Source: Corallococcus exiguus (GTDB taxonomy: Bacteria > Myxococcota > Myxococcia > Myxococcales > Myxococcaceae). Taken from it: DNA of 64,000 nt. The stretch spans positions 157,827 to 221,826 of the forward strand of contig NZ_JAAAPK010000002.1 of assembly GCF_009909105.1 (NCBI RefSeq). Direction: 5' to 3'. The stretch's first letter is position 1, and each line of letters opens with the position of its first letter. Positions 10,410 to 27,300 of the stretch are shown here, one piece after another. Made by a program: the position numbers and the translations under genes. The notes under the pieces were generated by a model. The model searched no databases. It had not been told where the DNA came from and worked only from the letters and a program-made list of their open reading frames with translations.

Positions 10410-11147
10410 ATGTTCTTTGGCCGTTCCAACGAAAACCCGACGTTCATTCCACACAGCAAGATTTCAGCGGCGGTCCAGGACCTGATTGAAGGTGCCAAGC
10501 GCGAGCTGACGCTGGTGACACCCTATTTCAAGCCCTGGAATCACTTGCAGAATGCCATCCGTGGCCGGCTGAAGGAGCATGTCGCGGTCACGTTGGTCAT
10601 CCGGGCGGATGAGCTCACCAAGACCTCGGCGCACCTCCAGCCGTTTGCTGCGGAGGGGGCCCGGATCATGAGTCTGGATCGACTGCATGCGAAGCTCTAC
10701 ATGAGCGAGAGGTGCGCCGTCCTGACATCCATGAATCTCCTTGAGACGTCCGCACTGAACAGCTGGGAATGTGCGTTGCAGATCTCAGCCGAGGACTCGC
10801 CCACGCTGTTCAAGCAGTTCGCGGAGCAGGTACTTGCTATTCGCAATGCCGCGAACCTTGTGCCGTCTTCGGCGCTCACCGGGACGCCTTCCCCGGCTCC
10901 TGCGTCGCAGCCTGCTGCGAAACAAGAGCCCAACCTCATCCAGCACTTCGGCATCTGGAAGACCGACCTGAAGCCCGAGATGATTGAGGCGCGTCGTACC
11001 TATCCGCGTGCCTATGAGGGGTGGTCAGACGAGGAGTTGGGTGTCGTGAAGCTGCTCGGGCAGCGCGGAGAAGATGCCGAAACCATCGCCAAGCGATTGG
11101 GCCGCCAACCCAGCTCTATTGAGCGGAAACTGAAGGAACTGCTTTAG
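10410..11147 (+). CDS. PLD-superfamily (single HKD-like motif) putative nuclease/phosphodiesterase with C-terminal helical tail
   Basis: IEGAKRELTLVTPYF at the start of the domain. The HxK motif LHAKLYMSE-x6-LTSMNL has H and K conserved, the acidic position is E, and TSxN is present. Local GC is about 58% against about 70% in the flanks. Confidence 0.6.
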   Translation: MFFGRSNENPTFIPHSKISAAVQDLIEGAKRELTLVTPYFKPWNHLQNAIRGRLKEHVAVTLVIRADELTKTSAHLQPFAAEGARIMSLDRLHAKLYMSERCAVLTSMNLLETSALNSWECALQISAEDSPTLFKQFAEQVLAIRNAANLVPSSALTGTPSPAPASQPAAKQEPNLIQHFGIWKTDLKPEMIEARRTYPRAYEGWSDEELGVVKLLGQRGEDAETIAKRLGRQPSSIERKLKELL

Positions 11148-11154
11148 ACCTGCC

Positions 11155-11673
11155 ATGGCCCACATCTCCAAAGAGGTTGCGTACAACCTCATCGTCGAGT
11201 TGGGGCTGCCTCAGGTCATCCTGGACATCTTCGAGGGCAATCCACCGGAGGACTGCAGCTACCGGTACGGCCGTCCGGATGAGTACTACCGGATGACCGA
11301 AGAGCATCAGGCGAACTACGGCGCGGACGCCGTGGTGCCATTCATGGACAACAGCAACTTCGACGTTCTGTTCGCCTATGATCGACAGCGGCATGCATAT
11401 CTTCGCTTCTACGTGGAAGCGCCAACGGAGGGCCTCGCCCAGCCCTTCTGCTCATGGCAGCAGCTCATGGCTCAAGAGTTCATCCGTCACTACGAAGATG
11501 AAATGGACAACGCCCTCCTTCGTGATTTCGCGAAGCGGTTCGACTTCCATTTCGTAGAGGAGTTGATCGAACTGGGAGAGCGGAACTGCCGGGAGGACGA
11601 CGAGAGGTGGCTCCCGGAGTGCGAAAAGTTCGTCGCCTGGGTTGGCGAACGAGGGGACAAGGCACTGCCGTAG
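11155..11673 (+). CDS. Hypothetical acidic protein (172 aa), partner of the PLD-like gene (8-bp intergenic gap)
   Basis: Track ORF with no recognised motif. It is rich in aromatic and acidic residues, in the size range of immunity-type proteins. It shares the same low-GC patch as the PLD-like gene. Confidence 0.5.
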   Translation: MAHISKEVAYNLIVELGLPQVILDIFEGNPPEDCSYRYGRPDEYYRMTEEHQANYGADAVVPFMDNSNFDVLFAYDRQRHAYLRFYVEAPTEGLAQPFCSWQQLMAQEFIRHYEDEMDNALLRDFAKRFDFHFVEELIELGERNCREDDERWLPECEKFVAWVGERGDKALP

Positions 11674-23769: not shown

Positions 23770-24150
23770 ATGTCTGTCAAATTCAATCACACGATCATCG
23801 CCGCGAAGGACAAGGTCGCGTCCGCGCAATTCCTCGCGGAGTTGCTCGGGCTTCCGGAGCCCAAGCCCTTCGGTCACTTCCAGGTGGTGAAACTGACGGA
23901 CGGCGCGTCGCTCGACTACGTCACCACTCAGGACGCGATCCACGGGCAGCACTACGCGTTCCTGGTGACGGAGGAGGTCTTCGATTCGCTGATCGCGAAG
24001 ATCCGCGACCGGAAGATCCAGCATTGGGCCGACCCGCGCGGCCAGCATGAGAATCAAATCAACACCCATGACGGAGGCCGCGGGGTCTACTTCCAGGATC
24101 CCAGCGGCCATTTCATGGAGGCCATCACCGTGCCCTACGGCGGTTGGTGA
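23770..24150 (+). CDS. VOC/glyoxalase-bleomycin-resistance-fold protein
   Basis: About 126 aa with paired βαβββ-type segments (HFQVVKLTDG…HYAFLVTEE…GVYFQDPSGHFMEAIT). Metal-ligand His and Glu positions are present. Confidence 0.65.
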   Translation: MSVKFNHTIIAAKDKVASAQFLAELLGLPEPKPFGHFQVVKLTDGASLDYVTTQDAIHGQHYAFLVTEEVFDSLIAKIRDRKIQHWADPRGQHENQINTHDGGRGVYFQDPSGHFMEAITVPYGGW

Positions 24151-24163
24151 GCCTCGTGCCTAG

Positions 24164-24412
24164 ATGGAAAGTGGCCTGGGCGTTCATCCAGGGCCGGTTC
24201 CGGGCATCAAGGTTCCAGCGTTTGGCAGAAGCCGCCTTAAGGTCCATGCGCAACCTGATCCAGATGCGCAGCTTCGCCTTCTGGACCTGAGCGCCCTCTC
24301 CAGCAAGCAGCTCGATGCCATCGCGCACGAACTTAACGGGCGCCCACGTCAAACGCTTGCATGGCGAACGCCTGCCGAAGTATTCGCGTCAGCTGTTGCG
24401 ACGACTGCTTGA
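24164..24412 (+). mobile_element. IS30-family transposase C-terminal fragment (pseudogene remnant)
   Basis: The translation …LDLSALSSKQLDAIAHELNGRPRQTLAWRTPAEVFASAVA matches the conserved extreme C-terminus of IS30 transposases (…ELxxIAxxLNxRPRKxLxxxTPxEVF). No N-terminal DDE region is present, and no inverted repeats are seen. Confidence 0.6.
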
Positions 24413-24663
24413 GAGCGCCGACTTTAGCTCAGCCGTTTTCGATGTCAGCTTGCTCGCAGGGGAAACCGAGGCGCTTCTCATGTGCCGATGCGGAATTTCC
24501 TGCAGGGGCAGTTCCTCAGTACACTCGCTCCTATCGAATTAGGCTCTTGCGGAGGGAGGAGCCTGTTCGTGTGTTCAGTTGTCCTTGCCAGGTTTTTGGA
24601 GCACCTGCTTGGTCGACTATAATGGATGAATTACCGATCTGTCTGCGCGCCCACGAGCATTGA

Positions 24664-25791
24664 ATGTCTTCTAAGTCCCCAAATGCTGTCACTCCGGAAC
24701 CGGTGTTCATTAGCCATTCCTCTGTCGACGGAGCCATGGCTAACTATTTTGTTGAGCAGCTTCTCGTGGCTGGAGCCGGACTCTCGGCGTCACAAATATT
24801 CTGCACTTCGGCAGCAAGTAGCCCAATTTCTGCCGGCACAAACTTTAATCCGAGAATCCGACAGGCAATTTCGCACAGTAGAATTGTCATCGCTCTTGTT
24901 TCCCGGAATTATTACAGAAGCCCCTTTTGCATGAGCGAACTGGGGGCTGCATGGGCTGCAGAAAAACTCCTCCCTATACTGGTTCCGCCGGTTGATTTTG
25001 GAGATCTGGAAGGGGTCCTCCATGGAGTGCACTGTCTCAGGTTGGAGGATGAGAGGAAAATTTTTGAGATCTACGATCGCTTGCGTGAAGCCAACTGGCA
25101 TCGACCAAACCCTGCTGGGGTTTACGCAGCGAAAGTCAAGGAGTTCTTGGCTGGCTTAGGTGGCCAACTCGCGAAGTTGCCTTCTCCTGATGTCGTGGAC
25201 CGCTCTGAATATAAAAAGCTCGAGAATCAAGTGGAAGAGCTTACTTCGAAACTAAAAGCCAGCATTGTCTCGGCTGAGGGTTTGCGTGCGGCGGCAAAGC
25301 CCGCTGTGCTCGAGTTGGCCAGGAAAGTCATATTCTCAGTTCCGCCAATTGCGGCCAATGGAACCACTACTGGAGCCGTAAAGCCCTCTGGCGGGGATAC
25401 TGAATTTAGCGATTTGGTTGAGCGAGTAAGTCGAATTGGAAAGACTGTGCCTAGCGTTATTTTCCGTATGGTCTATGCAAGAGCTGTTGGCAGCGAAGCG
25501 CATTTTCGGGTGTTTGAATCCGAGGCCGCTGACTGGGAAGCCGCTGTTGATCAGGGGTTGGTGAGACCTTATGACGATGGCGAGTTCTATTTGAACTTTC
25601 AGAGCGCAAGAGTTTCTCAGTTGCATGAGGCACTGCGGGCTGTTGATGATTTTTGGGCTGCCGTGGATGTTGAGTATCGGCTTGACTATGAAGTGTCGTG
25701 CCGCCATATCCCGTCTATTCGCGAAATTGATTTTTCGAGAAAGTGGTTCGGGTTTTGGTGGGAGGAAGATCCGGAGGATATTCCGTTTTAA
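24664..25791 (+). CDS. TIR-domain protein (N-terminal TIR with catalytic-Glu motif, coiled coil, ~180-aa unknown C-terminal domain)
   Basis: VFISHSSVDGAMANYFVEQLL … RIVIALVSRNYYRSPFCMSELGAAW shows the bacterial TIR hallmarks (FISHS start, second-strand IxxVS.NY, and the CxxEL glutamate). The region 24150-25850 has clearly lower GC than the flanks. Confidence 0.8.
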   Translation: MSSKSPNAVTPEPVFISHSSVDGAMANYFVEQLLVAGAGLSASQIFCTSAASSPISAGTNFNPRIRQAISHSRIVIALVSRNYYRSPFCMSELGAAWAAEKLLPILVPPVDFGDLEGVLHGVHCLRLEDERKIFEIYDRLREANWHRPNPAGVYAAKVKEFLAGLGGQLAKLPSPDVVDRSEYKKLENQVEELTSKLKASIVSAEGLRAAAKPAVLELARKVIFSVPPIAANGTTTGAVKPSGGDTEFSDLVERVSRIGKTVPSVIFRMVYARAVGSEAHFRVFESEAADWEAAVDQGLVRPYDDGEFYLNFQSARVSQLHEALRAVDDFWAAVDVEYRLDYEVSCRHIPSIREIDFSRKWFGFWWEEDPEDIPF

Positions 25792-25902
25792 TCGGACGGC
25801 ATGAAGTAATGAGGCTGGAGCACGCAAAAAGGGGGAGCCAAGTTCCAGCACGCATAGAACGAGGCTGGAGAACAGCTGACAGGTCTTGAGTCGAGTAGAG
25901 TC

Positions 25903-27300
25903 TTGACTATGGACGTGAGGATCTCACTAGACGCAAAGAACGCACTGCTGCGCGGCCTTCCGTCCATCGAACAACTCCTGCGGCGGCCGTCGCTGGAGTT
26001 CCGGCTCGCGAACCTTCCCCACGCCCGCGCGGTCGCGGCGCTGCGGCTCGCTGTTGAACGCGTGCGTGCCCGGCTCCTCGCCGGTGACCTGCGTCCCTTC
26101 GAAGACGCGGACGTGGAAGCGGCGCTCGCGTCCCTCTCCACGCCAAACCTCCGGCGAGTGATCAACGCCACCGGCGTCGTGCTCCACACGAACCTCGGCC
26201 GCGCACCGCTAGCTCCAGAAGCCGTGGAACGAGTCGTCGCCGTGGCCCGGGGCTACTCCAACCTGGAATACGACCTGGACGAAGGCGAACGGGGCAGCCG
26301 CTACGCCCCGCTCATCGGCCACCTGCGCACGCTTACCGGCGCGGAGGACGCCATCGTCGTCAACAACTGCGCGGGCGCAGTGCTGCTCGTCCTCGCCGCG
26401 CTCGCCTCCGGCCGCGAATGCATCGTCTCCCGCGGCGAGCTCGTCGAAATCGGCGGAGGCTTCCGCATCCCCGACGTCATGCGCCAGTCCGGCGCGAAGC
26501 TCGTCGAAGTGGGCACCACCAACCGCACCCGCCGCGCGGACTACGCCAACGCCCTGAGTCCAGACACCGGCCTCATCGTGAAGGTCCACCGCTCCAACTT
26601 CGCGCTCGTCGGCTTCACGGAAGAGGCGTCCCTCGCGGAGCTCACCGAACTGGGACGCTCCCGTGACGTGCCCGTGTTCCAGGACCTGGGCTCCGGCGCA
26701 CTCATTCCGCTGTCCGGCCCGGGCCTCACCCCGGAGCCCACCGTGGGCCAGGCCATCCGGGACGGCGCGGACGTCGTCGCCTTCTCCGGCGACAAGCTCC
26801 TCGGCGGTCCCCAGGCGGGCGTCATCGTCGGCCGCGCGGACCTGCTCCAGCGCATCAAATCCCACCCGCTCACACGTGCGCTGCGTGTCGACAAGATGAC
26901 GGTCGCGGCCCTGGAGGCGACGCTGGAGCTGTACCGGGATGGCCGCGCGGACGCGGTCCCCACCCAAAGCCTGCTCACCCAGCAACCGGCTTTGTTGCAA
27001 TCCCGTGCCGAACGCCTGGCGGCCTTGCTCGCGGCGCTGGGCGTGGAGGGCCGTGTCGTGTCCGTGGATGGACAGGTGGGTGGAGGTGCCATGCCTCTGT
27101 CCCGGTTGCCTTCCTACGCTTGCAGCCTCACCGTAGAAGCGCCGAAAGTATTCCTGGAACGTCTGCGCGAAGCCGAGGTGCCGGTTATTGGCAGGATTGC
27201 GGATGACGAGGTCGTTCTCGACGTCCGGTGTCTCTCAGAGGAGGACCTGGGGCAGGTCGCGCAGGCTGTGGCGGCCGCCCGTTCGGGAAGCCAGCCATGA
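25903..27300 (+). CDS. selA: L-seryl-tRNA(Sec) selenium transferase
   Basis: VINATGVVLHTNLGRAPL is present, and the PLP-lysine motif FSGDKLLGGPQAG is present. Length is 465 aa. Confidence 0.9.
   Translation: MTMDVRISLDAKNALLRGLPSIEQLLRRPSLEFRLANLPHARAVAALRLAVERVRARLLAGDLRPFEDADVEAALASLSTPNLRRVINATGVVLHTNLGRAPLAPEAVERVVAVARGYSNLEYDLDEGERGSRYAPLIGHLRTLTGAEDAIVVNNCAGAVLLVLAALASGRECIVSRGELVEIGGGFRIPDVMRQSGAKLVEVGTTNRTRRADYANALSPDTGLIVKVHRSNFALVGFTEEASLAELTELGRSRDVPVFQDLGSGALIPLSGPGLTPEPTVGQAIRDGADVVAFSGDKLLGGPQAGVIVGRADLLQRIKSHPLTRALRVDKMTVAALEATLELYRDGRADAVPTQSLLTQQPALLQSRAERLAALLAALGVEGRVVSVDGQVGGGAMPLSRLPSYACSLTVEAPKVFLERLREAEVPVIGRIADDEVVLDVRCLSEEDLGQVAQAVAAARSGSQP

Follow-up and report, generated by a model that had tools for sequence, protein, structure and literature searches.

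The subject of this analysis is a cassette of low guanine-plus-cytosine (GC) content which separates a glyoxalase-family gene from selA in the myxobacterium Corallococcus exiguus, and which carries a single intact gene, encoding a protein whose N-terminal domain is of the Toll/interleukin-1 receptor (TIR) type. The window, by which we mean the whole stretch of DNA that was analysed, comprises 64,000 nucleotides (RefSeq assembly GCF_009909105.1, contig NZ_JAAAPK010000002.1, positions 157,827 to 221,826 of the forward strand), and positions are counted from its first letter. A preliminary description had singled out the segment as an islet holding an orphan TIR protein beside the remains of an IS30 transposase, and had proposed that the protein was either a single-gene defence effector or half of a system that has otherwise degraded. 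The features of the locus are as follows.

23770..24150, + strand: glyoxalase/VOC-family gene, left flank, in conserved chromosomal synteny (Pfam Glyoxalase, E=9e-4)
24151..25935, no strand: variable low-GC cassette (GC 0.53), from the glyoxalase/VOC stop codon to about codon 11 of selA, delimited by blastn homology
24281..24412, + strand: remaining 3' end of a transposase gene of the IS30 family, last 43 codons and stop (tblastn)
24664..25791, + strand: intact gene for a 375-amino-acid protein consisting of TIR domain, helical linker and acidic C-terminal domain
24703..25173, + strand: SpbK-type TIR domain, residues 14-170, including extra helices past the core fold
24937..24939, + strand: codon (GAA) of E92, the putative catalytic glutamate, in the motif CMSELGAAW
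25201..25338, + strand: predicted single long helix, residues 180-225 (AlphaFold2)
25393..25788, + strand: predicted acidic C-terminal domain, folded core of residues 244-366 and a short tail (AlphaFold2)
25903..27300, + strand: selA, encoding L-seryl-tRNA(Sec) selenium transferase, right flank (TIGR00474, E=5e-171)

The open reading frame (ORF) at 24664..25791 is present as it had been described, and its product is 100% identical to WP_139917818.1 of Corallococcus exiguus, which is named by NCBI only as a 'toll/interleukin-1 receptor domain-containing protein' and for which the identical protein is held under three GenBank protein accessions, on three contigs. The N-terminal domain scores above the Pfam gathering thresholds for both TIR_2 (PF13676, 52.5 bits, cut-off 28) and TIR (PF01582, 28.9 bits, cut-off 21.3), placing it within the TIR superfamily, and structure comparison likewise gives the flavodoxin-like TIR fold, so that the assignment withstood the check on the fold to which it was put. 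Its nearest characterised relative is SpbK (YddK), the single-protein TIR abortive-infection system of Bacillus subtilis ICEBs1, which acts as a nicotinamide adenine dinucleotide (NAD+) glycohydrolase, or NADase (PDB 9phb; PMC12847820). The top match in the defence library is the PADLOC spbK profile (E=7.5e-23), aligned over positions 149-255 of its 308, i.e. the TIR half, and 9phb is the best PDB match both by sequence (E=8.4e-11) and by structure. Profiles for ThsB match weakly (E=0.003-0.04), and a match to SAVED_TIR (E=0.037) is confined to the TIR part.

With SpbK numbering taken from the PDB alignment and corrected for the 24-residue offset of the construct, E92 of CMSELGAAW aligns with E192 of the SpbK motif CLNEMGATW, and SpbK residues S121/S122, T148, I155, E192, G194 and W197 correspond to S19/S20, T48, I55, E92, G94 and W97, respectively. 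These SpbK residues have been implicated in NAD+ binding or in assembly, and G194 and W197 have been mutated (PMC12847820). Both E92 and G94 are invariant in the family to which the protein belongs (25/25 members), and W97 is nearly so. The earlier claim that the glutamate of a C..EL motif is the catalytic one thus holds as far as sequence and model go, and on the strength of these residues the TIR head is predicted to be a catalytically competent NADase.

The remainder of the protein was modelled by AlphaFold2 with a 25-sequence family alignment, giving a mean per-residue confidence (pLDDT) of 86.5 for the whole chain. Residues 180-225 form a helix with mean pLDDT values of 83-95 in blocks of 10 residues, dropping to 66 at its C-terminal end, which is probably a coiled coil or dimerisation stalk; the stalk region of relatives gives weak Pfam matches to coiled-coil families, e.g. 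ZapB and XLF_CC, and one sub-clade has a Pro/Ala/Ser/Lys-rich linker in its place. Beyond a disordered stretch (residues 229-241, pLDDT <50), residues 244-366 are predicted to form a compact domain of ~125 amino acids (pLDDT ~80-97) with the topology of three helices, a beta-hairpin and three further helices. Of the coiled coil and ~180-amino-acid C-terminal domain that had been proposed, the former is matched by the helix at 180-225, while the latter shrinks to the shorter folded domain with disorder between the two.

This C-terminal domain is strongly acidic, with a net charge of -13 compared to a family median of -12, and a family isoelectric point of 4.6 (67 members). A reading of its helix-helix-helix-hairpin order as a winged-helix DNA-binding domain was rejected in view of this acidity, which is family-wide. 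The conserved residues are all hydrophobic (F248, P263 and F357, the last of which lies in a terminal 'RxFW'-type motif), no second catalytic signature is present among them, and the domain outpaces the TIR in divergence (dN, the nonsynonymous divergence, of 0.34 versus 0.20). It belongs to no Pfam family in 25/25 members and has no PHROGs, NCBIfam or PADLOC match either here or in relatives. A sequence profile of the domain found nothing significant in the PDB, the only match being FEN1 at E=0.029, and Foldseek searches of the PDB and BFVD with whole-protein models returned no match to it, the PDB search having been made with a first model, in which the TIR was poorly folded, at a threshold of E<=1e-3.

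The protein had been called an orphan, which is correct insofar as no partner gene accompanies it at the locus, but the protein itself belongs to a family. A word-indexed search recovered three full-length relatives only; an exhaustive search of 1.84 billion proteins with a profile of the C-terminal domain gave 41 cluster representatives, in which the domain is nearly always C-terminal and the proteins are ~340 amino acids long, and a scan of metagenomes gave 259 relatives. The TIR and the C-terminal domain are encoded in one ORF (~345 amino acids) in 73 of the 85 loci analysed, and the window protein shares the features that define the family, namely an N-terminal SpbK-type TIR followed by the C-terminal domain in ~340-380 amino acids. 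Hidden Markov models (HMMs) built locally for the family match, within the window, ORF 24664..25791 alone (TIR 9e-59; C-terminal domain 2e-36). When ten family members were compared with the PADLOC spbK profile, its TIR half matched in 10/10 and its positions 1-148 in none.

Members of the family are found on mobile DNA. Full-length relatives (91-99% of the query aligned) are carried by plasmids of Mesorhizobium, Agrobacterium, Bacillus cereus and Rhodococcus fascians, where they are annotated merely as generic TIR proteins; the HMM of the C-terminal domain is positive in the Bacillus and Rhodococcus plasmid proteins and did not detect the domain in the Agrobacterium one. Four IMG/VR viral contigs also contain family members. 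On one of these, the 35.7-kb UViG_2911316793_000001, a high-GC phage or prophage, the family gene (L087:7965-8996) is a low-GC moron (0.53 versus 0.70) lying between the small and large terminase genes on one side and the sigma-factor and primase-helicase genes on the other. It is this moron, together with the plasmid relatives, that marks the family as mobile. A blastn search with two family genes against 5,426 Escherichia coli genomes, a DNA-level comparison of limited sensitivity, gave no match.

A further, rare variant of the architecture replaces the TIR. In protein P0033 (L085:456-1697), the same stalk and C-terminal domain follow a class III Pycsar-like cyclase head (Pfam Guanylate_cyc, 1e-5; PADLOC PycC, 5e-10), on a contig of 1,967 bp that is too short to show any effector, and in a second protein, P0034, the same head is apparent from a sequence motif only and was not confirmed by Pfam. 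This exchange of heads suggests that the stalk and C-terminal tail make up an exchangeable sensing module. The presence of the same tail on a cyclase, the restriction of conservation to hydrophobic residues and the faster divergence relative to the TIR point to a probable role of the C-terminal domain as the infection sensor.

Considering whether the gene acts with others, no conserved partner gene was found across 60 non-redundant family loci, a flank of >2 kb on a given side being available in 28-29 of the 60 groups: when 942 neighbouring ORFs were clustered all-against-all, the largest cluster covered two groups only. The three plasmid neighbourhoods are all unlike one another. The only recurrent neighbour is a conserved ORF of ~357 amino acids lying directly downstream of the TIR-family gene on two IMG/VR contigs that are related to each other (L089:5476-6549 and L090:9310-10380; 2/60 groups), which has no Pfam or PADLOC match. 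In the window, the neighbours of the cassette are all syntenic core genes, viz. those for ODP, a Ser/Thr kinase, glyoxalase, SelA, HNH and ParA, in agreement with the earlier statement that no ThsA-like or other partner is visible there. Among the neighbours of relatives there are many known defence genes. A PADLOC scan of 111 non-overlapping neighbouring ORFs from 27 non-redundant loci (E<=1e-10) returned GajA/GajB (down to 1e-243), DrmA (9e-293), IetA and MzaC, as well as a type IIG restriction-modification enzyme, RTasHel, PDC-S19 and PDC-S59. Of the two possibilities raised by the preliminary description, a single-gene TIR defence protein with a novel C-terminal domain is the one that agrees with the recurrent architecture, the lack of a conserved neighbour and the defence genes nearby; the alternative, that half of a degraded system survives here, is not supported, as no neighbour is conserved across the 60 groups.

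The resemblance to SpbK can be stated more closely. In both cases a single protein on mobile DNA combines a TIR, in which the equivalents of the catalytic glutamate, G194 and W197 are conserved, with one non-TIR domain that is free for sensing. The order of the parts is reversed, since the TIR is C-terminal in SpbK and N-terminal in the window protein, and the N-terminal four-helix-bundle sensor of SpbK (residues 1-94), a protein whose trigger is the SPbeta portal YonE, is absent, its counterpart being the long helix together with the acidic domain of ~125 amino acids, to which it is unrelated. Membership of the SpbK family was accordingly rejected, the TIR being of SpbK type and both the four-helix sensor and the domain order being different; by analogy, the window protein may work like SpbK while standing outside its family.

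Other TIR systems are more distant. Thoeris likewise uses a TIR with a conserved catalytic glutamate, but no ThsA-like or other effector gene is present in the cassette or conserved in the family, and the protein has an extra domain of its own, so that it does not belong to Thoeris as defined by an operon of ThsB and a ThsA-type effector (SIR2-SLOG, TM-macro, protease and others). TIR-SAVED, TIR-STING and PycTIR were also rejected, as Pfam finds no SAVED, STING or cNMP-binding domain on the C-terminal part. The E. coli systems TIR-II, V, VI and IX described by Wang et al. 2024 share the concept of one TIR protein, for which it was found that a single protein suffices for defence and that active-site mutants lose it (PMC11350192); going by their description, they are set apart as TIR-TPR or short TIR-only proteins. 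The DNA-level blastn search with two family genes, mentioned above, gave no link to E. coli TIR-I to TIR-IX. With Pycsar there is the likeness of the PycC-like head of P0033 on the same stalk and C-terminal domain, and the difference that the window protein has a TIR head and that no Pycsar effector is present. The combination of TIR, stalk and acidic domain is not described in open-access papers on SpbK, on the E. coli TIR systems (PMC11350192) or on TIR signalling (bioRxiv 10.64898/2025.12.03.692087).

The cassette is sharply bounded. Sliding-window GC is 0.49-0.55 across the islet compared to 0.63-0.73 in the flanks, with values of 0.531 for the cassette and 0.508 for the TIR coding sequence, and GC at third codon positions is 0.495 in the TIR gene versus 0.82-0.94 in five neighbouring genes; these measures, together with the fact that the cassette is the sole strong compositional outlier within the 64-kb window, bear out the description of a low-GC islet. 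Homology by blastn to seven Corallococcus/Myxococcaceae loci stops at ~24143-24150, about the glyoxalase stop codon, and restarts at 25935-25936 (25893 for Corallococcus sp. CP114039), inside the first selA codons. The proteins flanking the cassette are 84-100% identical in other Corallococcus, with 89-97% identity for SelA within the genus, and the glyoxalase/VOC gene is 76-86% identical across six related loci. The start of this last gene (23770) was set by a 126-amino-acid gene call in Corallococcus sp. CP114039; its Pfam Glyoxalase match falls just short of the cut-off, and Fos-family matches are weak.

Between these conserved flanks, the content of the junction varies from genome to genome.

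C. exercitus (L003): glyoxalase-selA gap empty, 108 bp
Corallococcus sp. RDP092CA (L005): gap empty, 213 bp
C. sicarius (L006): gap empty, 62 bp
C. coralloides KYC2213 (L002, NZ_CP172866.1): gap of 1.9 kb, GC 0.51, with a Drt6/Drt4-class reverse transcriptase
Metagenome-assembled genome PMG_225 (L007:4661-6001): gap of 1.3 kb, GC 0.52, small ORFs only
C. carmarthensis (L004): rearranged, with a radical-SAM gene and IS5-family fragments
Corallococcus sp. CP114039 (L001): slot occupied by a second TIR-family allele, GC ~0.50

The glyoxalase|selA junction is therefore a defence hotspot in Corallococcus, which is empty, at 62-213 bp, in three genomes, while the window, L001, L002 and L007 have low-GC cargo of 1.3-1.9 kb there. 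The reverse transcriptase of C. coralloides (L002:4235-5926, - strand, 563 amino acids) matches PADLOC Drt6 at E=3e-165 and Drt4 at E=6e-155, and the cargo there is, as judged by these profiles, a single-gene DRT defence system. The prediction that the islet would prove to be an indel between glyoxalase and selA is supported by the three empty junctions and by the DRT occupant. It had also been considered that the TIR gene might be a conserved core gene of uniform GC; the gene of CP114039 does occupy the same slot, but it is low in GC and its protein is only 59-61% identical to that of the window, so that the gene is not core. The likeness to known defence hotspots lies in a fixed junction that is empty in sister species or holds alternative low-GC cargos (two TIR alleles, DRT6/DRT4), and the difference in the lack of an integrase, tRNA or flanking repeats at the cassette, which is a single-gene unit of ~1.8 kb; the whole 64-kb window contains no tRNA gene.

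The history of the two TIR alleles differs from that of their surroundings. Synonymous divergence (dS) between the window and CP114039 is 0.13-0.25 for the flanking ODP, Pkinase, SelA and ParA genes, whereas the TIR alleles are saturated, with dS of at least 2.7 and a third-position identity of 0.42. Such saturation implies that the two alleles are far older than the split of the species, and indicates a separate arrival or exchange of each, as opposed to fast evolution in place. Exchange of cassettes probably proceeds by homologous recombination in the conserved flanks. The glyoxalase gene itself (23770-24150 against L001:9229-9609) has a dS of 0.59 and a dN of 0.077, above the other flanks, which fits recombination tracts reaching out from the hotspot.

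Some further details of the related loci were recorded. The slot of PMG_225 includes an ORF for a hydrophobic protein of ~126 amino acids, and Pfam and PADLOC scans of this slot were negative. In C. carmarthensis (L004:1-6000), the kinase and glyoxalase genes are reduced to fragments, and the radical-SAM gene, with a small upstream ORF, is followed by IS4/IS5-family transposase fragments beside selA; a long ORF that abuts the site, ahead of the radical-SAM gene, is apparently NRPS-like (non-ribosomal peptide synthetase), judged from sequence alone. The radical-SAM gene was considered as a viperin and rejected, its weak pVip match covering the generic radical-SAM core only. A second variable junction separates the Ser/Thr kinase and glyoxalase genes, one gene further left (L003:2267-3576 and L006:2276-5562); there, C. 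exercitus has a gene for a 410-amino-acid membrane protein and C. sicarius has ~3.3 kb with three large ORFs.

The IS30 remnant reported in the cassette is real, and smaller than was thought. Residues 344-386 of a 386-amino-acid IS30 transposase align by tblastn to 24281-24409 with 56% identity (E=2.8e-12), and no further match to this query occurs elsewhere in the window. An 82-amino-acid ORF spans 24164..24412, but its likeness to IS30 is confined to the last 43 residues, no reading frame of 24151-24280 matching the transposase, so that 43 codons rather than ~80 amino acids of the C-terminus are retained. The tail matches 504 plasmid records, labelled IS30 wherever annotated. The fragment has no Pfam match; the DDE (rve) domain, the helix-turn-helix (HTH) region and the N-terminus are all absent, matching terminal inverted repeats were not found, and it thus lacks both the full transposase and the inverted repeats of a functional insertion sequence. 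The proposal that an insertion had been followed by decay is better recast as turnover of cassettes at a hotspot, with decay confined to the IS30 fragment and the TIR gene intact.

The reading that we favour, and consider probable without great assurance, is that the cassette was acquired horizontally into a defence hotspot and that its intact gene encodes a stand-alone anti-phage protein of the abortive-infection type. The mechanism proposed is drawn by analogy with SpbK, in which docking of the non-TIR domain on the portal of the phage brings dimeric TIRs together as active strands arranged head-to-tail (PMC12847820). The SpbK-type TIR would be an NAD+ glycohydrolase, inactive while dispersed or dimeric, and the long helix would join two or more chains beforehand (pre-dimerisation). 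The acidic C-terminal domain would recognise a sign of infection, for which a phage protein that is basic or multimeric is the likeliest candidate, and binding of this cue would cluster the TIRs head-to-tail to form composite active sites around E92. Degradation of NAD+ to ADP-ribose, with or without cyclic ADP-ribose (cADPR), would follow, and the infected cell would cease to support phage growth.

A number of points weigh against this reading. No NADase or phage-defence experiment on any family member was found in the literature, the C-terminal domain is without a recognisable fold relative, which makes its sensor role an argument from architecture, and a promoter scan upstream of the TIR gene gave nothing convincing. 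The association of the family with defence islands, drawn without a background control, gives qualitative support; PADLOC contains no model for the family, and standard defence finders probably miss it. In the cyclase-headed variant, moreover, the tail may drive a signal-producing head that needs an effector, from which it follows that the TIR version could be a signal producer and not a depleter of NAD+. The protein would then follow a ThsB-like logic: on sensing infection, its TIR would produce a nucleotide of the cADPR type, by which an effector with its gene at another place in the genome would be activated. N1-cADPR is the product of SpbK, the closest TIR, for which its authors allow a signalling role with an unlinked receptor; Thoeris types using canonical cADPR have been reported, and for the Pycsar-like cyclase head, on which the stalk and C-terminal domain also occur, the one mode of action known is via a separate effector. 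We nonetheless regard such signalling as unlikely, as the described Thoeris and Pycsar effectors sit in the same operon, no neighbour is conserved among the 60 non-redundant loci, three plasmids and one phage, and a gene that travels by itself between phyla, aboard phages and plasmids, could not count on a receptor encoded by its host.

That the gene is a decaying remnant, either the non-functional half of a former multi-gene system or part of an IS30-borne insertion, might be supposed from the truncated IS30 gene which adjoins it, the lack of a partner gene in the cassette and the absence of a clear promoter. The ORF is full-length relative to the family, however, and keeps all the conserved catalytic and structural residues, the identical protein is present on the three contigs noted above, and the family is single-gene everywhere, which makes this explanation very improbable. 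Myxobacteria are predators rich in polymorphic toxins, and a role outside immunity was also considered, in which the protein would be a TIR NADase toxin of predation or kin discrimination, or a host-mimicking TIR adaptor like the Tcp virulence factors, which are among the coiled-coil bacterial TIR proteins. Such a role would suit the predatory, toxin-rich lifestyle of the host, but the TIR begins at residue 14, leaving no signal peptide or secretion-associated N-terminal domain, there is no adjacent immunity gene, relatives lie among defence genes, unrelated soil bacteria have them on their phages and plasmids, and the nearest TIR, SpbK, is anti-phage; we consider it highly implausible.

Single-protein NADases of the TIR type form an established class of bacterial immune protein, for very few of which phage recognition has been worked out, the pairing of SpbK with its portal being the example. 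Against this background, the favoured stand-alone defence protein offers a compact candidate of 1.1 kb, whose family, with a few hundred members, is uncharacterised. Its head is comparable to the solved SpbK and its presumed sensor is different and at the opposite end, so that the comparison bears on how general a rule activation by clustering through a non-TIR domain may be. Another TIR architecture would be an incremental addition unless its tail were a new portable class of sensor. A bolder proposal along these lines, tentative and in our view rather doubtful, is that the stalk and acidic domain are an unrecognised portable phage-sensing module driving at least two kinds of head, TIR NADases and Pycsar-type cyclases, whose strongly acidic and fast-evolving surface may act as a nucleic-acid mimic or decoy that clusters the heads by capturing a basic DNA-binding or structural protein of the phage. 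If true, the sensor would be of a new class and the protein would count as a single-gene defence system deserving a name of its own, ranging from Myxococcota to Bacillota and Actinomycetota. Mining for further cargo genes may also profit from the glyoxalase|selA junction, a precise defence hotspot in Corallococcus, which has been little studied for phage defence.

Some minor features of the window remain to be described. The start of selA (25903/25909) lies such that the first ~10 codons of the gene and all of its upstream DNA belong to the variable cassette (25893-25936), as a result of which each cargo variant hands selA another N-terminus and upstream region, and expression of selA may depend on the cassette. 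The spacer between the TIR gene and selA, which is specific to this genome, contains a direct repeat of the form (A)A(T/C)GAGGCTGGAG(C/A)AC at 25808-25823 and 25858-25873, 50 nt apart, possibly by chance. Over the cassette, Rfam gave no match at permissive E-values, promoter and terminator scans were uninformative, and the repeats and inverted repeats found were short pairs at chance level only. The only other GC dip of the window (0.58) is at 10410-11673, which encodes a phospholipase D (PLD)-like (HKD) protein of 245 amino acids whose C-terminus bears an HTH (Pfam PLDc_2, E=1e-8) and, next to it, has an acidic ORF of 172 amino acids without a Pfam match; these two genes may form another small accessory or defence-like pair.

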